Of a stretch of DNA of 64,000 bases, positions 5,637-59,720 are shown piece after piece (the stretch's first letter is position 1; each line of letters opens with the position of its first letter). The translations under genes were made by a program, and so were the position numbers. Origin of the DNA: Somniosus microcephalus (lineage: Eukaryota); the NCBI GenBank assembly GCA_052327205.1, contig CM126221.1, forward strand, positions 43,090,001 to 43,154,000, in the 5' to 3' direction. The notes below the pieces were generated by a model. It searched no databases. It was given only the letters and a program-made list of their open reading frames with translations, and was not told the origin of the DNA.

Positions 5637-8600
5637 CTTGAGAAGTCAAGGAGACAACTGTACCCAAATCTCTGCCAATTCACTTTGAACCATCCGCTTG
5701 TAAGTGTGTGAAAATCCCATGAATCTTCCCTCTGGTGTTTCCTTCACTGTCTTAAGGAAACCACTTCATTTCTGCTCGACACTTCTATAGTTGGCTCCAA
5801 CTAATGCCGGGAATGGATTTTCTGTGGATTTGCTAGCAGAGAGAGAGTCCTTTTCCTATGACAATGTGGTACCATGTGCTGGAGCACTGTCGATCACCAT
5901 CGGGACTGGAGGCTCTACCATTTTCTATTCTTACGTTTTTGGACTGATGTCTTACACCCGTCTTTTTGATTGTGGAGATTGCATGTATTTATTATTTAAA
6001 AAAAATAATTTCTGTGTCCACCATTTGTTTCTAGAGTTCCTCCATATGGTATTGGTCACATGGCCATCGAGACACTATCAATTCCACAGAAATGTAGACA
6101 GTAGACATGTTTTAGATCAGAAATTATCTCTCCTTAGTTCTGTATACATTTTTTTTCTTTTAGCATTTCCCTCTCCTCAATCGCCTATTCATTTTTATCT
6201 CCACAGGAATATGTTTAAAAAAAAAAAAAAAATTAAAAAAAATTGACAACACAAAGACGAGAGTACTACAAAAAACAAAATAAACTGCAGTAGCAAAACT
6301 AGAGTCAAATAAAGACCTGAGACAAATCAGCCAAAAGATAGGAAACAAGATAGCAAAATTAGAGTCAAATGTTTTTGATGATAAAGCCAATTTTGATCGT
6401 CCTAAAATAGTAACACATAATAGAATCCAGAATAGAATAGGATTGATTGCTTAAATAAAGTAAAAGTTTAGACTCAAAAGTAATTAGACAATGTTGTGCA
6501 TTGCCTTCATAAAGCCTTTTATTAAGGACCAGATCTCAAACATGATGAAAAACCACACTGTCCTGTCTCATGTTTTATTTAGTTCATACAAACACGAACA
6601 AAAACTCTGGATAAGAGAATAGAATTAACTGCAAAAATGAAAATTTACTGCTAACAGAGGCCACGGAATATTTTTTGCTACAGATATTAAGAATTACATT
6701 GCAGCCGTATAATTTGTGATGCCTTTCATTTCCATTCTGTATAGTCATGGTTAAAGTCATAGGAAAATGGCTCAGTTGTAAATATTAATTTATACTGTAA
6801 TGCGGTAGATTATACTATTAAATAGAATTGCTCATGTGAATTAATGAGCTTTGCCTTGCCAGAAAAGTATGTCTTAAACTGGTCCACTAAACTCACTCAA
6901 TACAAATAGATCTGTAATTTTTAAAACATGCAGATCTTTTCTTTCATAGAATATTTGTACCCAAAGTAATTCTCTACAAATGTTTTTATATTGAAAATAT
7001 GCTGTTGGCAACAAGCACACAGTAGTACTGCCACGAATGGCACATTTTCAACAAAAAGAAAGGAAAACATTTCCTCCAAAGGCACCCAGGACCCGACTTC
7101 TCGTGGGCCCGGAGAAATTGTCTGGAAAGCAGCAGAAAATGTGGAACACCAGTGAAGTGGTACAATCTAAGCTTTTTTAAAAAATCAGATAAAGGGAATT
7201 ACTGAAGCTGGTGTAAAACGGTACTTTGTATAAAACCAGAATAGTAGAAGCAGAGGGAATAATTGTAAACTGAAGAAACGGAGTTAAACGTAAGGTCTTA
7301 CTCCAATGTGATGAACTTCTGGACTAGAGTGCCACCTAGTGCAGTCATTGAGTTGATACGTGATTCACCAGGGCATGAAGAGATACAGATTTGAGGCAGG
7401 TTAAGAGATAAAAGTGGTCAGATTAGGTTCTGAAACCAGGCCTAAACGATAAGTTAAAAGTCTCTTTCTCATCCACGTATTCTTGTGTACCAGCTTGGCT
7501 GTAGGGATGTCAAACTGTGGTCTTCAAATTTTTTAATAAAAATTCAAATTCCACTAATAACTAAGAAATTGATGTGCATCGGCAACATCTAATTAGGAGG
7601 GAACACCAGGAACACTGTTCCTTTAATGGTATTTTTCCATTTCACAGCTCCATACTTAATATCCTGACGGGCAGCATCCTCAGTTCATGTTCTCCTTTCA
7701 TCAACAGTTGTGTGACATTGTCTGTGTAGAATATAGTTGATTTGTACCAATGGTATCTTCTATTTTTAATTGCAGTCCTTTGCTTTAAAGTGCTGTAAAG
7801 TTTAGATGTATCTATATAATTAAAAATCTTGCCTCACCTTTAAATGTTTGTGCCACACCTTCTGTCTTGGTGTGAAAAATCATCCATCATGCTTTTTTGA
7901 TTGGTTCAAATACAACTATCTTAAGTTTAAAAACTTTGATTCATTAAATGTAGATAGGTATGAAAGTGAGCAATCCAGGATGAGGAACTTGCCCAAAAGC
8001 AACCAAATTGCACATTTCCCCCTCCTACCGCCGCCCCCCCCCGCTACCACATACCAACCTGGAGCCAGCAATTACCCCAATCTAACCAACTGCATTGCTC
8101 AATTAATTTTTTCCCAAGTAGTTCCAGCAGCCATGTTGCTTTCTGACCCACTGTGCTATACACAACAATTACATTTCTACTATACATGTATGAAAGACTT
8201 TTTAAAAAAAATGAATAAACATATACATTGTACATGAGAAATCCCCGAATTTATTTCCTCCTGCATATGTCTGCATGGGGCCTGAGGTGCAGGTCTTCAG
8301 TTCTAGTTTTCACATGTGTAAGCTCAGTGCTTCTCAGTTGCCTCTCTATACCGTCCTCTTGTGTGTCTGCAGGCTCTTGCTGGTCCCCACTACCACTTGT
8401 CATCCCAACCTTTCCCATCATTTTCTGTAATTCACATGTGAGTCATCCCCGAGCCTCAGTTGTCCAAGCTGTCACTGCTCCTTTGTCCTGTTCCAATTCT
8501 TGACTCTGCTTTTTCCCACATTCACTGTGAAACAGCCAGTTCCCCATCCAATCAAACCCTGTGTATAGCAGCCAGCTTTCTGCCTGGCTTGACTCAATCT

Positions 8601-9960: not shown

Positions 9961-10090
9961 NNNNNNNNNNNNNNNNNNNNNNNNNNNNNNNNNNNNNNNN
10001 NNNNNNNNNNNNNNNNNNNNNNNNNNNNNNNNNNNNNNNNNNNNNNNNNNNNNNNNNNNNNNNNNNNNNNNNNNNNNNNNNNNNNNNNNN
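9961..10090. other. Assembly gap (130 N)
   Basis: Run of n characters. Confidence 1.
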
Positions 10091-25878: not shown

Positions 25879-25968
25879 GTACGGAAACACATAAATGATC
25901 TCTATGAAGATCTACGCGATGGACATAACTTGATCTCCCTCTTAGAAGTCCTCTCTGGGGTGACTCTG
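25879..25968 (+). CDS. MACF1: Spectraplakin CH1 exon, [30 protein letters not shown] (90 nt, phase 0/0)
   Basis: Poly-T tract plus AG acceptor (ttttttag|GTA CGG) and CTG|gtaagt donor. The translation matches the plectin/dystonin/MACF1 CH1 motif [21 protein letters not shown]; 'VRKHIND' is the MACF1-type reading as I recall it. Confidence 0.95.
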
Positions 25969-30690: not shown

Positions 30691-30980
30691 TCTCCCTTGA
30701 AGGATTCACCTGACATGCATCATATACCCTCAGGACCCAACAAGGATCATAAGCTGGTATCCATAGTAAGGAAATCCATACATTATAGATTAACAAAGTA
30801 TAATGCAAATGTCTGTTGAGAATAAAATTTGCTGGTAGATTTTATTTACACACTAGCAATCTCTGCTAGGACAAGTTAATTTCAAGCCTTTATTTGTGTG
30901 CAATTTTTGTGCTTTTCTTTTCCTTATTTGCTCTTGCTTTGGTTCTGCCATTCTCTGTCTTTTTGTCCCGTGCTTGATAG

Positions 30981-31016
30981 CAAAAGGAACAGTCTGTGCT
31001 GAAGAACTTGCGCTTG
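30981..31016 (+). CDS. MACF1: Alternative 36-nt cassette microexon in CH1, QKEQSVLKNLRL (equivalent of plectin exon 3alpha); extendable in frame to 31076
   Basis: About 80-nt pyrimidine-rich tract ending tgcttgatag|, donor TTG|gtgagg, frame-preserving phase 0/0. Position and length match the 12-aa insert recalled from plectin (PRERDVIRSVRL) and dystonin (PRERDFLKTLRL). Confidence 0.8.
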
Positions 31017-34000
31017 GTGAGGCTGCCACCCTGTGTTTCTGAACACAGTCAGGAAGAGGGGGATGATATTGAGGGGGTAGGTGCCACTTCCCCCAATGGC
31101 GGTGCAATAATTACTGTATCACTACTAGATAATCCACTCTGTTATTAAATGAGAGAGTACCTCAACTATATGGGGTTTAAAAAAAAGATTGGTATAGTGT
31201 TGAAATAGACCTTTTTTGTTGTGCACAATATATTTACATGCTTTGTTTTATGTTTTATTGTGAATGTTTTACCTCTGTTTTGCCCCATTTTTCCTGGCTT
31301 CCATTCACCAGTGCCTCCTTCAGCAGCTGGAAAAACTGGATCATTTGCGCTGTAGGTAAAAAGTATACTTTGTGGGGAAAGATTGGCATATGCCAGTTTT
31401 TTCCAGTGAGATGGCAATCTCTGCCCCTGCAGACATGTCACCAGTCGTCTAAATAAGACAGACAGACAGAACTCCATTCTGGAGCGTAGCCATGTTGGAA
31501 TTGGTGTTAAGGGATTTGAATCCAGACTGTCTTAAACTGTCCCTCTAATAACAGAGCTGCAGGGACTTATTACACTTTTATTAATATTTTATATTTGGAA
31601 TTTGATATGGGAGTGCCATGTACAGTATAATGTCTTGGCTATATTATTGCATATTGTACTGGCATAGTGCCATGTTGTGCTGTCCAGCCAATTGCAAAGA
31701 CCATTAAGATGGCCATTGATGATTAATTTTTTTAAATAGCAGTAAACTTGGAACGATCCCAAAGCAGATGATTTGTGCTGCTGGGCCTGGAGGAAAAGAC
31801 ATGATACACAATGTCGCAAAGCTTTCATATATTGTATTTGGTATTGAAAAGAGCTTGAAATTGATATTGAGTCAGCTGTATAAATATGTGATACTCAGTG
31901 GATTATCTCTTTTGATACAGTATCTTGCTTGTGGCATTAATATGAACAAAAACAACATAACTAATTATAATCTTTCCTTCATTTTGTTCCTTCATTTATT
32001 ATAGTTTGGGGCATTTTGGGTTAATTTACCCAGTTTTTCATTAATACATATATAGTTTATAATTTTAAATACTGTCTGGGCTAAACAACATGGGCTCTGT
32101 CTAGACATCAGATGGAGTCGATTTTGGTACCTTGTCTAGAGATTCTATCTGAGTTTGGGTGGGAGGAGTCGGGCACAAAACTGAATGATATAGTAATGCA
32201 CTCACTGGATAAAATAATTGCCTGCAATGAAAAGCCCAAATAAGGCTGCACTGTGACTATGTAGTACTTCCTTTAAAAAAAAATACAGTTCCTGATCACA
32301 TTCTTTCCATCATATTTACTGTAACCCAGACAGCTCTAATCAGTGGAAGACCTGCTGAGATGTGTACAGTATATTTCACTAACAATGAAAGGAACAACAA
32401 TAACAGGAAAAGTTTTTTTTTGTGTGTTTGCCTGCTGCCTGAGATTGTGGCAGTCGTTTCCTTTACCCTAATAGATTAACCCAGATGATTTTTCAAGTGT
32501 TTGCTGTGAGACCTGGACTAATGCTGCACATCTTGAAAATTGTTCACCTCTTGGATACTTGCTTGCTAATAAAAGTAAAGTCTTTTTGCAAGAGTAAAAT
32601 GGTGGGGGAGCATGCAAGAAATGTTTCTAGTGTGTGATATAAAATATAATTTCTTTTGCTGTTCCATGACTTCTTTTGCAGCATATGTTTTACATGTAAA
32701 ATGGCAAAGACGGTGAATATAGGCCACTCATAATTCTATTGAAAAAAATTCTTAGCCTTACTATTCCTGATATATCATGGAGTTTGCAACGAATGGATTG
32801 GTAGTCTGTATACTTTTTCATAACAATGGAAAGGTAACTCTTGGCTCTACCTGGTAGTGCAATTTTTGGCCTACCAGACTCCTGGTGTCCAGTGCAACCT
32901 AATTACACTGGAATTATTTTACAACTTTTGCTGTCCATAGAGATTCTTTGATCAGACTGAAACCTGTAAACTTTGTCCTCTCAGCACTGAACTAGCCCCG
33001 AAGACCTATAAGTGGTCAGGCTTGCAGTGGTTGAATTTGCCTTGGTCAGAACGGGCTTGATGCCAGAACTTGCCGGCCGGTAGCCCTCTTTTTTTTCCTT
33101 TGTAACTACTTAAACCAGCTGATTCAAATTTATCACGTTGCATGGAGCTGTCCCATCATTCAGCATGGCTCCCTGGAGTATGGAATTAGAATCATCTAAC
33201 TGGCTGCAATGGAGAAGTGGGCCAGTGCCAGTAAGTTCTGGGACGTGAAACAGAAATGCTCATGCTGACTTCATTGTATGGGATGTTTCAACAACTGTGA
33301 ATGTGGTGAGTCCTATCATTGGGTATCGAGCAGGTAGGGGGAGGCTGGCTGAGCATCAGTAATCCAGGGGAAAGAGGTAGACATAGCACCAGGAATCAAA
33401 CAGACAGGAGAGACAACATTGCTACAATGATATTTCACTCTAGTTAAAGTGTATACTCAGTGTGGCTGTGGGAGTCTTTCTAAATCCTTGGTATGCTCCT
33501 GGTGTGTACAGTTTTTACCCTTTTCTCAAATATAGCTTTGATATACCTTGCCCAGTTCTGGATTGACCAAGCATTTATGTCTGGTCAAAGAAACAGCGGC
33601 AGTTATGAAGCTCTGTTAGCTCTTTTGTTTCCTCTTTCCTTTCCTCTTTCATGTCAAACACTACAGTTCCTTTCAACAGCGTTAAATTCTTTATAAAGCC
33701 CAACTCCATTAAGATTCAGTCAGTCCACAGAGTTTAAATAACTTAATGTATTTCTTATCATCTGCCAGACTTTTGGATGACACAGGCCAAGAGTGAAACC
33801 TTGGCAAGGACTTTGCAGCCTGCTGTCCCTGGCTGTATGATTGCTGCCTAGGTAGACCAATTTCTAGACAGATGAACTTAAGTAAATCTCTGCCCCCTCA
33901 TTGAGCAGGCAAAAAGCATGAGCTTACTTATCATGACCGAGGTATGGTTTTGATCTGCAATTGTGGCACATCAGGCACCCCTGATGTGTTGCTAATAAGT

Positions 34001-35670: not shown

Positions 35671-35748
35671 CCTCGTGAGAAAGGCCGCATGCGCTTCCAC
35701 AGGTTACAGAATGTACAGATTGCACTTGATTACTTAAAGCAACGACAG
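35671..35748 (+). CDS. MACF1: Spectraplakin CH1 exon, [26 protein letters not shown] (78 nt, phase 0/0)
   Basis: Branch-point-like actaat, pyrimidine tract, ttttttttag| acceptor and CAG|gtaggt donor. Canonical plakin actin-binding-domain sequence; KQRQ is MACF1-like. Confidence 0.95.
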
Positions 35749-37432: not shown

Positions 37433-37525
37433 GTGAAATTAGTCAATATTAGAAATGACGACATTACTGATGGGAATCCTAAACTAACACTTGGGTTAAT
37501 TTGGACCATAATTCTACATTTCCAG
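37433..37525 (+). CDS. MACF1: Last CH1 exon, [31 protein letters not shown] (93 nt, phase 0/0)
   Basis: ttactctttcag| acceptor and CAG|gtaagg donor. Matches the conserved CH1 C-terminal helix of MACF1/DST. Confidence 0.95.
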
Positions 37526-41733: not shown

Positions 41734-42052
41734 TGTGGTAAACCACGTTCACTATCGTATCACTGTTAGTAGTTAGCACTGTTCACCACTGTTCGTTATA
41801 ACTGTATCACTGACCACTATTGTATCACGGTACGAGGTTGCCTCTTGCCACACTGCTATACCTGGGATGACCACTGCCGACTCCGCCTTGGCTCCACCCA
41901 CCAGGCCAGGTATAAAGGTGAGCGACTGGCTGGTATTCCTCCTGCTTGGATCGGATCACCCACGAGAGTGGGCTCTGTTATTTAGTCAATAAAAACCTTT
42001 AGTCACCTTCGTAACTCTTCGCCTTTTATTGGAGGAATTGATAGGTATATCA
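41734..42052 (+). repeat. 5' LTR (TATAAA at 41911, AATAAA at 41988)
   Basis: Direct repeat of 46048-46366. Confidence 0.97.
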
Positions 42053-42071
42053 ATTTTATTGACTAAATTTA

Positions 42072-43082
42072 ATGATGTCCGACAACGAGTCACAACCGGC
42101 GGAGGAGCCACCAGCGCAGCTCCCAGGAGCACAGCCACACCAGCCAGCTTGGCTGCGAGCCCTCAGACCGCCGTACCTGGACCTGAACCCACGAGCAGCA
42201 AACTCAGCCGCAGACTTTAAACACTGGCTGGTCTGCTTCGAATCATACCTGAGAGAATCCAGCGTCCCTCAGGCATCCAAACTAAGTGTCCTGCAGGCAC
42301 AACTGAGCCCGAGAGTATACACTCTCATCGAGGACATGACTACCTACGAGACCGCCATCAACCTGCTGAAACAGAAGTACCGGACCCCGGTAAACTACAT
42401 GTACGCTAGGCACCTCCTAAGATCACGGCCGCAACAGCCAGGAGAATCAGTAGCCGAATTCTCACAGGCGCTATATGCACTCGCCAGGAACTGTGACTTT
42501 AAATCGGTGTCGGCAGCCGAAAATACTGAAGATAATATCCGCGACGCATTCCTGAAAGGCCTACGGTCCGAGTACTCACGGCAAAGACTGCTGGAAGCTA
42601 AAGACCTCAGCATGGAAAAAGCTGAAGCCCTCGCTATCTCCCTGGAAGTGGCCCACCAAGATCAGGAAGCATTCACCAGGTACTGCTCGCGACCCTGGGA
42701 CTCGGGCCCGACTCCTACCACAGCACCCTTCCCAGCGCCGCCCCCGGGACCTACCTCTGCGTCGGCGTCCCGGACCCGACCGGCCCCGGCACCGGCCCCG
42801 ACATCGGGCATCCGCGATCGGGCCGCCGGCTGTTTTTTTTGTGGCCAGGAGAAGCACCCGAGGTCGCGCTGCCCAGCCAAGAACTCCATATGCAAAACCT
42901 GCCTGAAGAAAGGCCACTTCTCCAAGGCCTGCAGGAGCGGATCCTCAGAGGCCAGCAGTGCCGCATGCGAACTATGGGGGCGGCCATCTTTGTTTAGGGC
43001 AACTGAGGCCAGCATCCCCACACATGAGTCATGGGGGCGGCCATCTTTGATTAAGGCAACCGACCCCAACAGTGCCTCGTGA
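42072..43082 (+). CDS. gag: Gypsy Gag (336 aa)
   Basis: QQPGESVAEF major-homology-like motif, IRDAFLKGL, and two Cys/His knuckles CFFCGQEKHPRSRC and CKTCLKKGHFSKAC. Confidence 0.9.
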   Translation: MMSDNESQPAEEPPAQLPGAQPHQPAWLRALRPPYLDLNPRAANSAADFKHWLVCFESYLRESSVPQASKLSVLQAQLSPRVYTLIEDMTTYETAINLLKQKYRTPVNYMYARHLLRSRPQQPGESVAEFSQALYALARNCDFKSVSAAENTEDNIRDAFLKGLRSEYSRQRLLEAKDLSMEKAEALAISLEVAHQDQEAFTRYCSRPWDSGPTPTTAPFPAPPPGPTSASASRTRPAPAPAPTSGIRDRAAGCFFCGQEKHPRSRCPAKNSICKTCLKKGHFSKACRSGSSEASSAACELWGRPSLFRATEASIPTHESWGRPSLIKATDPNSAS

Positions 43083-46005
43083 GCTACGGGGGCAGCCATC
43101 TTCTCCGTCATTTTGCCCTACCTCGTGGGAGACGCCATTTTACTCACCACGCCCGACCGCCTCGCCCGCAGATGACAACGACTCGCTCAGCTACACACTA
43201 GCTTCCGTCACCCTGGACCAAGCCCGCCCGCACCATCTGTCCAAGTCAATGATGGACATCAAAGTGAACGGCCACGCCACGACCTGCCTGTTCGACAGCG
43301 GAAGCACGGAGAGCTTCATCCACCCAGACACGGTGAGCCACTACTCCCTCTCTGTCCTACCAACGCGCAGCCGAATCTCGATGGCATCGAGGTCCCACGC
43401 CACGGACATCAGCGGCTACTGTGTCGTGACCCTGTCGGTTAAGGGCACGGAGTATAAAAACTTTAAACTCCTCGTCCTCCCCCATCTCTGCGCTGCCGTC
43501 CTACTAGGGCTGGACTTCCAATCCCACCTCCAAAGCGTAACCCTAGCATACGGTGGACCCCTCCCCCCACTCACAGTCAACAACCAGCAAACGTTAAACC
43601 GCCCACCGCGTAACACCTGCAGCCTCTCCACCCTCAAGGTCCCGCCACCCTCTCTGTTTGCTAACCTTACCCCTGACTGCAAACCCGTCGCTACCAAGAG
43701 CAGGCAGTATAGCGCCGGGGACAGAGCCTTCATTAGCTCTGAGGTGCGGCGCCTCCTGAAAGAGGGCATTATCGAGGGGAGCAGCAGCCCCTGGCGTGCC
43801 CAGGTCGTAGTCGTAAAGACCGGCGATAAAAACCGCCTGGTCATCGACTACAGCCAGACCATAAACAGATATACCCAGCTGGACGCATACCCCCTCCCCC
43901 GCATATCTGACATGGTCAATCAGATTGCACAGTATAAAGTATTCTCGACCATCGACCTGAAGTCGGCCTACCACCAACTCCCTATCCACCCTGAGGACCG
44001 CCAGTATACCGCCTTCGAGGCGAATGGGCGCCTATACCACTTCCTTAGGGTCCCCTTCGGTGTCACTAATGGGGTCTCGGTCTTCCAAAGGGAGATGGAC
44101 CAGATGGTTGACCAGAACGAACTGCAGGCTACATTCCCCTACCTAGATAACGTCACTATCTGCGGCCGCGACCGGCAGGAACATGACGCGAATCTGGAGA
44201 AATTCCTCCGTACGGCCCAACGGCTGAACCTCACCTACAATAAGGAGAAATGCGTGTTTAACACCACGCGCCTTGCCATCCTCGGCTGCGTAGTGGAGAA
44301 CGGAATCATCGGCCCCGACCCAGGAAGAATGCGCCCCCTCATGGAGCTACCCCTCCCCCACTGCCCTAAAGCACTTAGGAGAACCCTGGGGCTTTTCGCC
44401 TACTATGCCCAATGGGTACCCAATTACGCGGACAAAGCCAGACCCCTCCTGAAAGCCACTTCCTTCCCCCTCACGGAGGAGGCGTGCGCGGCCTTCTCCC
44501 TCATTAAGGGAGACATAGCCAAGGCCACGATGCACGCAGTGGACGAGTCCATCCCCTTCCAGGTGGAGAGCGACGCATCCGACTTCGCCTTAGCCGCCAC
44601 CCTAAACCAGGAGGGGAGGCCAGTGGCCTTCTTCTCAAGGACCCTACAGGGCCCCGAGATCCGACATTCGTCGGTCGAGAAAGAGGCCCAGGCGATCGTG
44701 GAGGCAGTACGGCGCTGGAGGCACTACCTGGCAGGCAAACGATTTACCTTCCTCACCGACCAGCGTTCGGTGGCTTTCATGTTTAATAACAAGCTGAAGG
44801 GCAAAATCAAGAATGACAAGATTTTGAGATGGAGAATCGAGCTCTCCACCTACGATTATGAGATCTTGTACCGGCCAGGCAAGCTGAACGAATCCCCTGA
44901 TGCCCTTTCACGAATGACATGCGCCAGCGCGCATATCGATAGGCTTCAGACCCTCCACGACCAGCTCTGCCACCCCGGAGTCACCAGACTCTACCATTTC
45001 ATTAAGGCCCGCAACCTGACCTACTCCATCGAGGAGGTCAGGACCATGACCAGGAACTGCCAGACCTGTGCGGAGTGCAAACTGCACTTCTATAGGCCGG
45101 ACCGAGCAAGCCTGATCAAGGCCACCCGCCCCTTCGAGCGCCTGAGCATCGACTTTAAGGGGCCCCTCCCGTCCTCTGACCGTAATGTGTACTTCCTCAA
45201 CATCGTTGATGAGTACTCCCGTTTCCCCTTTGCCTTCCCCTGCCCCGACATGACCAGTAGCACGGTCATTAAGTGCCTGAATGCCCTCTTCGCCTTGTTC
45301 GGGTTCCCGAACTATATACACAGCGACCGGGGCTCCTCCTTCATGAGCGAGGAACTCCGGCAATTCCTCCTAGAGAGAGGTATTGCAGCAAGCAGGACCA
45401 CCAGCTACAACCCCAGAGGTAACGGTCAGGTGGAAAGAGAGAACGCGACGGTATGGAAGGCCGTCCTCTTAGCCTTAAAGTCTAAGGGCCTCCCAACCTC
45501 CCGCTGGCAAGAAGTCCTCCCGACAGCGCTGCACTCCATCCGGTCATTACTTTGCACGGCCACTAACACCACCCCCCATGAACGAATGTTCGTTTTCCCC
45601 AGGAAGTCGACTACGGGAACCACTCTACCAACCTGGCTGACCGCCCCGGGGCCGGTCTGGCTGCGGAAACACGTGAGGGCCCATAAAACGGACCCCCTGG
45701 TCAAGAGGGTGAACCTCCTGCACGCCAACCCCCAGTACGCCTACGTGGCGTACCCAGACGGGCGGGAGGACACTGTCTCCCTACGAGACCTCGCACCCTC
45801 AGCCGATCCGGAAACACCGCCACCACCCCCCCCAACCCCAGCCCAGGTAGACGGCATGCCGGAACCCCACGAGCCCTCGCCGACCACGCAAACACCAGCA
45901 TCAACACCGGATAAGGCACCAGCACCGGATAAGGCAACACCACCGCTGCGGCGATCGGAGAGGCTTACGAAGCCTCCGGACAGACTGACCTACCAGAATT
46001 GGTAG
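43072..46005 (+). CDS. pol: Gypsy Pol (protease, RT, RNase H, integrase), 977-aa open frame
   Basis: LFDSGS protease; IDLKSAYHQ, VPFGV and YLDN RT; SDASD..EKEA RNase H; H..H..CQTC and DFKG/SDRG/VERE integrase. Confidence 0.95.
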   Translation: MPRELRGQPSSPSFCPTSWETPFYSPRPTASPADDNDSLSYTLASVTLDQARPHHLSKSMMDIKVNGHATTCLFDSGSTESFIHPDTVSHYSLSVLPTRSRISMASRSHATDISGYCVVTLSVKGTEYKNFKLLVLPHLCAAVLLGLDFQSHLQSVTLAYGGPLPPLTVNNQQTLNRPPRNTCSLSTLKVPPPSLFANLTPDCKPVATKSRQYSAGDRAFISSEVRRLLKEGIIEGSSSPWRAQVVVVKTGDKNRLVIDYSQTINRYTQLDAYPLPRISDMVNQIAQYKVFSTIDLKSAYHQLPIHPEDRQYTAFEANGRLYHFLRVPFGVTNGVSVFQREMDQMVDQNELQATFPYLDNVTICGRDRQEHDANLEKFLRTAQRLNLTYNKEKCVFNTTRLAILGCVVENGIIGPDPGRMRPLMELPLPHCPKALRRTLGLFAYYAQWVPNYADKARPLLKATSFPLTEEACAAFSLIKGDIAKATMHAVDESIPFQVESDASDFALAATLNQEGRPVAFFSRTLQGPEIRHSSVEKEAQAIVEAVRRWRHYLAGKRFTFLTDQRSVAFMFNNKLKGKIKNDKILRWRIELSTYDYEILYRPGKLNESPDALSRMTCASAHIDRLQTLHDQLCHPGVTRLYHFIKARNLTYSIEEVRTMTRNCQTCAECKLHFYRPDRASLIKATRPFERLSIDFKGPLPSSDRNVYFLNIVDEYSRFPFAFPCPDMTSSTVIKCLNALFALFGFPNYIHSDRGSSFMSEELRQFLLERGIAASRTTSYNPRGNGQVERENATVWKAVLLALKSKGLPTSRWQEVLPTALHSIRSLLCTATNTTPHERMFVFPRKSTTGTTLPTWLTAPGPVWLRKHVRAHKTDPLVKRVNLLHANPQYAYVAYPDGREDTVSLRDLAPSADPETPPPPPPTPAQVDGMPEPHEPSPTTQTPASTPDKAPAPDKATPPLRRSERLTKPPDRLTYQNW

Positions 46006-46047
46006 TACACTTCACCTCGCCGGACTTAATTCTAAACAAGGGGTGAA

Positions 46048-46366
46048 TGTGGTAAACCACGTTCACTATCGTATCACTGTTAGTAGTTAGCACTGTTCAC
46101 CACTGTTCGTTATAACTGTATCACTGACCACTATTGTATCACGGTACGAGGTTGCCTCTTGCCACACTGCTATACCTGGGATGACCACTGCCGACTCCGC
46201 CTTGGCTCCACCCACCAGGCCAGGTATAAAGGTGAGCGACTGGCTGGTATTCCTCCTGCTTGGATCGGATCACCCACGAGAGTGGGCTCTGTTATTTAGT
46301 CAATAAAAACCTTTAGTCACCTTCGTAACTCTTCGCCTTTTATTGGAGGAATTGATAGGTATATCA
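46048..46366 (+). repeat. 3' LTR
   Basis: Direct repeat of 41734-42052. Confidence 0.97.
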
Positions 46367-58508: not shown

Positions 58509-59720
58509 ATGGGAAACTCTTTAGGATGCGTTCGAGAGCAACAAGAGACTGCAGAAACAGATCAGAGAAAATCTCCCCTCACGCCACAAAAAAAAATCAG
58601 ATTTAAACGCATAAGGAGAAACAAGAAAGCTGCTTTACATTCTAGAGATGCTGCAGAAGGACCTGAAAAAAACCTGCCTGAAAAATCATTCCGGTTGGCG
58701 ACACTGCAGAAAAAAGGTGACACTGGTTTGGATGCGATACATTTCCCTTTGGATGTAACGGTGGGAAAATTGTTAACGGAGACCAACACTGATCCTAAAA
58801 ACTGGAACACGGAACATGTTGAAGACCTTTCAGATGTGTTACAAGAGCCGGTGCATCTCAGTAATGCATCACATTTTATTGCTAAGACTGTGATCACGCC
58901 AGAGAAATCAATAGATGTAAATGTTGACGCTAGTGTAGAAAGTGCACAGCAGGTGCTTTCTATTGAAGCTGAAATCAAACCAATCGGTGAACATGTGGAG
59001 AAATTTGGGAAAGAATTACATATAGCAGATCAAATTTCAGCAGGGAAAGAGCTCTGTGACCTAGGTGTAAAGCTTTCAGAAGCTGAAGTGAAAGGAGATT
59101 TGAGAGCTGTGCCCTTCCCAGTGTCTGGAGAAGAGAACCAAATTCAGCATGTAAAAGGAAATACAGCAGTAAGCAGTGGAAGAATTGAGAATATCACTGA
59201 GGCTGCTGCCTTCAACAGCAATAAAATAAAAGGTGATGTTGAAAGTCCCATATCATCCAGAGAGACGGCAGTGGAGAAACGACAGCTTGAGTGGGAGGGA
59301 AACAGCGCAATGAGATTCAGTGCACTTGATAAGCTGTTTAAACCTCTACATACTGAACACATATATGGGGAGAACAGCCAGTCATCACCGTACAGGGGAA
59401 CTGAGGCTCTTGAAGAGGAAATAAAGTTATTAAGAATGGAGGCTAATGTGTCACCTTTGCAGAGTGACTTCACTTTAAATACAGAGCTCCAGACTAATAA
59501 TACTCTGTACTCCTCTGGTTACTGCAGTAATTTTCCATCTACAGATATAAATGATAGTGAATCTGGCAGAACAACGAGCAGAGATTTTGAGCTGCTCTGC
59601 TCTATGCCCGATAGAAGCAACTTGTCCATTTCGGAAAATGAGTTTGGATTATCAATGAATAGTGAAGGCGAAGATGACAATTTAGAGCAGATCTCGCTTC
59701 TTGGCCAGGAAATGGTTAAT
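58509..59720 (+). CDS. MACF1: Alternative first coding exon of the CH1-less isoform-3 type (404 codons, MGNSLGCVREQQ...EMVN)
   Basis: 408-aa non-transposon ORF with strong Kozak context (ataATGG). The N-terminus MGNSLGCV..SP..KKIRFKR resembles the recalled mammalian MACF1 isoform-3 start (MGNSLGCVKEP..SPKKRVRFKRR), not the dystonin one (MGNVCGCV). It lies after the last CH1 exon and has a phase-0 donor AAT|gtaagg at 59721; a weaker phase-0 ATG|gttaat is at 59715. Confidence 0.88.

Follow-up and report, generated by a model that had tools for sequence, protein, structure and literature searches.

A conserved cassette exon with two in-frame donors in the CH1 domain of shark MACF1, with paralogs in dystonin and plectin

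The window, by which we mean the whole 64,000-nucleotide stretch of Somniosus microcephalus DNA analyzed here (contig CM126221.1, positions 43,090,001 to 43,154,000), carries CH1 exons of a MACF1 gene and, in the intron between the CH1 exons ending LSGVTL and beginning PREKGR, a cassette exon with one acceptor and two in-frame donors (Table 1). The MACF1 assignment made by an earlier sequence-only reading of this DNA held: in a tree of 125 columns and 21 rows, 18 of them references, the locus grouped with human, monitor lizard and teleost MACF1, with modest support for the clade (UFBoot 80). The same tree placed one shark paralog (C9) among dystonin (DST) rows and another (C5) with shark plectin (PLEC) (UFBoot 99). 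Human MACF1 was the top PDB match of the downstream exon, and a MACF1-type first exon (MAGYVPGQ...), resembling human MACF1 (P0156), lies about 200 kb upstream on the same contig and strand.

Two further features lie after the last CH1 exon. The first, in the intron that follows it, is an LTR retrotransposon with an open gag-like ORF and an open pol ORF encoding protease, RT, RNase H and integrase domains in a gypsy-like order; because its two 319-bp LTR stretches are identical, a recent insertion is suggested. The second, ahead of the first CH2 exon, is a 404-codon open stretch from MGNSLGC with phase-0 donors at 59715 and 59721 and no Pfam match. It fits an alternative first exon of a CH2-only MACF1 isoform, which we take to be the one named MACF1a3. 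A CH2-only MACF1 isoform is described in the available text of PMC8012552.

Table 1. Positions of exons, splice sites and other features in the window
Feature	Position	Strand	Remarks
Upstream constitutive MACF1 exon (VRKHINDL...LSGVTL)	25879..25968	+	Equivalent of plectin exon 3; donor GTAAGT, phase 0
U/C tract and acceptor	30887..30980	+	AG-free for 92 nt, with TGC motifs (nearest at -10); acceptor AG at 30979-30980
Cassette core	30981..31016	+	36 nt; QKEQSVLKNLRL; paralog of plectin exon 3alpha
Inner donor	31017..31022	+	TTG/GTGAGG; short form; doubles as the first two codons of the extension
In-frame extension	31017..31076	+	60 nt, 20 codons; VRLPPCVSEHSQEEGDDIEG (6 D/E, 1 R); long form only
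Outer donor	31077..31082	+	GGG/GTAGGT; 9-mer identical in shark dystonin
Downstream constitutive exon (PREKGR...KQRQ)	35671..35748	+	Phase 0; first 12 codons the likely source of the cassette, ABS2'-equivalent
Next constitutive exon (VKLVNIRN...ILHFQ)	37433..37525	+	End of CH1
LTR retrotransposon	41734..46366
LTRs of the retrotransposon	41734..42052 and 46048..46366
gag-like ORF	42063..43079
pol ORF	43051..46002
MGNSLGC open stretch	58509..59720

The acceptor (...gtgcttgatag) has its last base at 30980, and when re-read in the window the coordinates given earlier for the acceptor, both donors, the phases and the flanking junctions were all exact. Both donors are in phase 0, so that inclusion of the 36-nt core or of core plus extension (96 nt, 30981-31076) would add 12 or 32 residues; over the 96 nt, the other two reading frames contain stops. 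The core is basic (3 K/R, 1 E) and the extension acidic. The cassette in the CH1 of shark MACF1, a single acceptor with two in-frame donors, is real and more than a chance match. Splicing in shark with 0, 12 or 32 added residues is predicted, the case for inclusion there coming from conservation.

Scored against nine insert peptides taken from non-shark database proteins, the cassette acceptor ranked first of 564 AGs in the intron (21.1, next best 7.3; Z 5.8), and the exons in the paralogous introns likewise ranked first against non-shark inserts (1 of 303 and 1 of 1081 AGs). By U1-pairing energy the inner and outer donors (-8.6 and -11.1 kcal/mol) stand in the top 1.3% and 0.4% of 521 intron GTs; the inner donor, with G at +6, is nevertheless the weakest scored, constitutive donors ranging from -10.2 to -13.4. 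Of the 106 donor-like GTs in the window, 2 are followed by a frame that stays open as far as a strong second donor, the cassette's among them, and the 92-nt AG-free zone before the acceptor ranks 7th of 570. That no shark transcript supports the exon would suit a dead pseudo-exon or a chance match within the intron, a reading made very improbable by the first rank in all three paralogous introns, the intact frame and splice sites, and the orthologous inserts carried by annotated proteins.

Each shark paralog has one clear phase-0 exon of 12 codons in the same intron, between LSGxxL and PREKG. The dystonin exon (PRERDILKTLRL) has donors at +36 and +96, the outer one reading GGG/GTAGGT as in MACF1, and the plectin exon (3alpha; QKERDVMKHLRL) has a donor at +36 only. 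The MACF1 core is identical to that of shark DST at 22 and to that of shark PLEC at 27 of 36 nt (p<=0.001, shuffles), and the MACF1 and DST extensions are similar (p=0.002) and equal in length. Downstream of the plectin core there is no second donor, and a TGA occupies extension codon 6, where MACF1 and DST encode a conserved Cys. In fixed register the plectin sequence after the core matches the extension at 24 of 54 nt, and 0.27% of 17,504 intron windows match at least as well; in gapped shuffles it gave p values of 0.055 and 0.026, and a downstream control did as well (0.026). This stretch, stopped and lacking a donor, may be a relic of the extension, although the evidence is mixed. Comparison of the window with the paralog loci by tblastx gave only repeats among the matches listed.

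At the shark plectin locus, exons 2alpha to 5 are inverted between two 500-N scaffold gaps (G000:C5:2359293-2420996), and the exon after exon 5 carries a one-base frameshift; both are probably assembly errors. A TAGCAG tandem at the 3alpha acceptor would permit a form of 33 nt, and exon 2alpha (G000:C5:2413250, minus strand) encodes HWRAE, identical to the human peptide. The scan that finds this plectin HWRAE found no 2alpha-like exon in intron 2 of shark DST (59.2 kb) or MACF1 (54.8 kb, blind at window positions 9961-10090, which are 130 N). Hemichordate and priapulid spectraplakin models (P0198, P0206) carry six additional residues (HW...) where 2alpha would lie, and so 2alpha looks bilaterian-old; a 3alpha-type insert was seen in no invertebrate row.

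We gathered 349 proteins, of which 204 span the junction and were assigned to paralogs by diagnostic residues; the remaining 145, made up of read-through ORFs, invertebrate proteins and truncated models, were excluded. Among MACF1-type proteins 72 lack an insert, 5 have one of 10 residues (all pig), 20 have one of 31-35 residues (rodent, birds, teleosts) and 3 are odd predictions, the five pig and five eel entries being one gene each and many mammal and bird long-form entries being gene predictions. DST-type proteins comprise 46 without an insert, 2 with 12 residues (beaver RefSeq) and 8 with 33-35, and PLEC-type proteins 26 without, 17 with 12 and 2 odd; a further 3 proteins were unclassed. 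Eel RefSeq isoforms occur both with and without the insert, and a lamprey model has one of 13 residues. The dystonin forms named in the sequence-only reading are present in database models as 12- and 33-residue inserts. That reading knew of no such exon in mammalian MACF1, a point corrected by the models of pig, Neotoma (long), camel, pangolin and titi-monkey (a primate; long). Retention of the exon as a shark-specific relic is excluded by the MACF1 inserts of mammal, bird and teleost models.

No shark or other chondrichthyan protein among the 349 has the insert, and two shark-like spliced Logan proteins (P0075, P0100) skip the cassette. In an insert-only search covering proteins of up to 2,000 residues, a range that excludes full-length shark MACF1 models, none of 4 candidates carries it. 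An ESM Atlas search gave no lead (top score 0.81), and Pfam has no family on the insert. Reads X1, X6 and X7 behave as low-cover DNA, uninformative on expression, with repeat-dominated cover and no exon joints; their assembly over the cassette is one unspliced contig, 31001-31327.

DNA of another species (X2) differs from the window at 1 of 96 exon nt and at 26 listed (34 counted) of 492 flank nt (Fisher p 0.047, or 0.013), and the X1 DNA at 0 of 76 exon nt and 11 of 251 flank nt (p 0.052). In both comparisons the exon is free of indels and the splice sites and frame are unchanged; the one exon change in X2 alters the protein (D to N). X3 and X4 reads, near-identical to the window and perhaps its source, were left out of these counts. 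Across protein models the DST and PLEC cores are nearly invariant, as is the DST tail from fish to mammals, and the MACF1 insert diverges strongly among shark, teleost, bird and mammal (25-35% identity; pairwise E 0.056).

Teleost MACF1 inserts lack the valine at position 13 expected from a GT inner donor, suggesting that teleost MACF1 is long-only with the inner donor lost; three states are therefore not universal. Of the earlier claim that a three-state cassette predates the split of plectin, DST and MACF1, the supported part is the 12-residue core, found in three shark genes and a lamprey model, and an origin of this core exon before the split is supported by the sequence comparisons; the long form may also predate plectin, the evidence from the possible plectin relic being mixed. 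The shark MACF1 exon might itself be real but two-state, with one donor used and the other kept for encoding L-V or as a leftover; the weak inner donor would fit, as would teleost MACF1 being apparently long only and plectin short only. We think this unlikely, because both donors are retained in shark DST and in the DNA of another species, mammalian MACF1 and DST each have short as well as long models, and the valine at the inner-donor position persists in the long forms of birds, lizard and mammals.

The sequence-only reading had also seen the features of a neural microexon. Six TGC motifs lie within 100 nt of the MACF1 cassette acceptor, one of them at -10, but 68 of 251 pyrimidine-rich AGs of the window also have a TGC at -20 to -5, so the motif alone says little. 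The nearest TGC is at -10 in MACF1 and PLEC and at -44 in DST, and the AG-free zones of the three cassette acceptors measure 92, 161 and 161 nt against 35, 33 and 23 nt at constitutive acceptors. The RBFOX motif TGCATG is absent from 500 nt around the MACF1 exon. Microexon length limits are usually set at 3-27 or <=30 nt in the source text available; at 36 or 96 nt the cassette is above them, and of all forms just the mammalian one of 30 nt falls within the wider limit.

In the solved MACF1 chain 4z6g the insertion junction is flanked by residues 51 and 52. In filamin A the actin-contacting ABS2' is Arg91-Leu104 according to the available text of PMC9132340, and its role is also treated in the accessible part of 10.1101/2020.02.21.959791. 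Filamin chain 2wfn_A 98-150 aligns to query 149-201, which puts the junction at the N-terminal edge of ABS2', about 2 residues inside, if 2wfn_A is numbered natively. The insert is apparently absent from the MACF1, plectin and dystonin PDB sequences matched here. In a model of the rodent long form (52 sequences) the pLDDT was 93-96 over CH1 and 45-58 over the insert, the downstream helix was kept, and the best structural matches were MACF1 and plectin ABD structures; a single-sequence fold had a pLDDT of 37.6. The long form is predicted from the model to add an acidic, flexible loop.

We consider it probable that this is a conserved optional exon which is predicted to place 0, 12 or 32 residues in the loop preceding the CH1 actin-contacting stretch and so tunes the grip of the actin-binding domain. 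The strong divergence of the MACF1 insert and the CH1 fold left unaffected in the model would also suit a tolerated, rarely included loop of little effect, or one acting on non-actin partners (tubulin, calmodulin, integrin, rapsyn). A non-actin effect is a live rival because of what plectin reviews report: in the available text of PMC8391331 the nerve-specific 2alpha/3alpha variant is the best microtubule binder, and that of PMC8464768 credits the gain in actin binding to 2alpha, not 3alpha. We nevertheless judge a loop of this kind the less likely account, with perhaps a minor share of the probability, in view of the conservation, in three paralogs and throughout gnathostomes, of the frame, the position, the basic core and the acidic tail, of nearly invariant DST and PLEC cores, and of an exon with fewer substitutions than its flanks.

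In DST, PLEC and lamprey the core has the pattern PRERDxxK/RxxRL, which lines up with the 12 constitutive residues that follow, and this adjacent 12-residue stretch is PRERGR.RFH.L in several invertebrates. The idea of a duplication was noticed first and tested afterwards, by a scan of all 7,145 12-mers of full-length platypus MACF1, in which the mean DST/PLEC/lamprey core score ranked the adjacent 12-mer first of 7,145 (Z 4.8). Single non-MACF1 cores ranked the adjacent stretch 1, 1, 1, 1, 2, 2 and 7, and MACF1 cores ranked it 25-1464, the shark MACF1 core at 73 of 7,145. A nucleotide trace of duplication was not found between cassette and downstream exon, which are identical at 9-15 of 36 nt, near random. 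On these peptide matches the simplest reading is a probable origin of the exon by tandem copying of the start of the downstream exon, the copy having since degenerated. What is new here is the reading of the cassette as a duplicate of an actin-binding-site stretch.

The mechanism we propose would begin with duplication of the acceptor and first 36 nt of the downstream exon, in an early vertebrate whose spectraplakin gene had not yet been duplicated into MACF1, DST and PLEC. Skipping would be the default, and inclusion would be tissue-biased, probably neural, through the long AG-free pyrimidine tract. The short form would add a basic copy without the GRMRFH residues and re-tune binding modestly. 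The flexible loop of the long form, acidic like actin itself, would make F-actin binding weaker or differently selective; alternatively it would turn the domain to other partners, in the way that plectin 2alpha/3alpha favors microtubules. MACF1 and dystonin are neuronal disease genes. A bolder version, which we find somewhat doubtful and put forward tentatively, is that vertebrate spectraplakins carry a splice-controlled decoy of their own actin site. Duplication of part of an exon, earlier than the split of MACF1, DST and PLEC, would have produced it as a degenerate tandem copy of the ABS2'-equivalent, with an optional acidic tail; the decoy would switch F-actin binding by neuronal MACF1 and dystonin among three states, strong, altered and weak, while plectin would have kept the short state only and teleost MACF1 the long only. 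If true, a conserved insert with zero, short and long states at the actin-contact edge would be a further control of actin binding. The orthologous exon in mammalian gene models makes the finding less of a surprise but opens the question to work in mouse and human cells.

The available text of PMC8012552 attributes the control of actin binding by MACF1 and dystonin to first-exon choice and CH2 phosphorylation, and the splicing described there and in that of PMC4171495 concerns the first exon and C-tail only. Our search of openly readable literature, which included the insert peptides, found no description of the MACF1 or dystonin exon, although VastDB-type tables may well list it, and the exon is unmentioned in the accessible portions of PMC11219738, PMC5630039, PMC12626420, PMC12868881, PMC12871342 and 10.1101/2023.01.18.524359. 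The Macf1 microexon of PMC13067610 is a different, C-terminal one: of 7156 residues, the primers in its available text match at 6764 and 6791 rather than at 67. The CH1 exon is an ancient cassette, a two-donor relative of plectin 3alpha, present in many vertebrate gene models and apparently unstudied.

Among its closest counterparts, plectin exon 3alpha (36 nt, 12 residues, between ABD exons 3 and 4) is described in the available text of PMC8391331, PMC8464768 and PMC3695321. The sequence-only reading had drawn this parallel, and rightly: junction, phase and 36-nt length are the same and the cores are homologous, the human plectin form being PRERDVSRSSRL (P0165). The shark MACF1 exon differs in its second donor, which adds 20 acidic residues that shark plectin cannot add, and plectin has a partner exon, 2alpha, of which none was found in shark MACF1 or DST. 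SRRM3/4-dependent neural microexons, as treated in the accessible text of PMC12871342, resemble the cassette in preserving the frame and perhaps in having a long AG-free pyrimidine tract with UGC near the acceptor, but the shark cassette exceeds their size definition. The dystonin CH1 cassette (12 or 33 residues in RefSeq/GenBank models) has the same two-donor design, with 36 and 96 nt and the same outer donor in shark; unlike the quickly diverging MACF1 insert, the dystonin core keeps PRERD and its tail is near-invariant. The mammalian, avian and teleost MACF1 inserts come from the orthologous exon at the same junction (EPAGLKTLRL plus an acidic tail) and reach 33-35 residues in birds and 31-35 in teleosts. 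Unlike the shark exon, that of teleosts has seemingly lost the inner donor, and whereas the mammalian short form has 10 residues (30 nt), the shark retains the 12-residue core.
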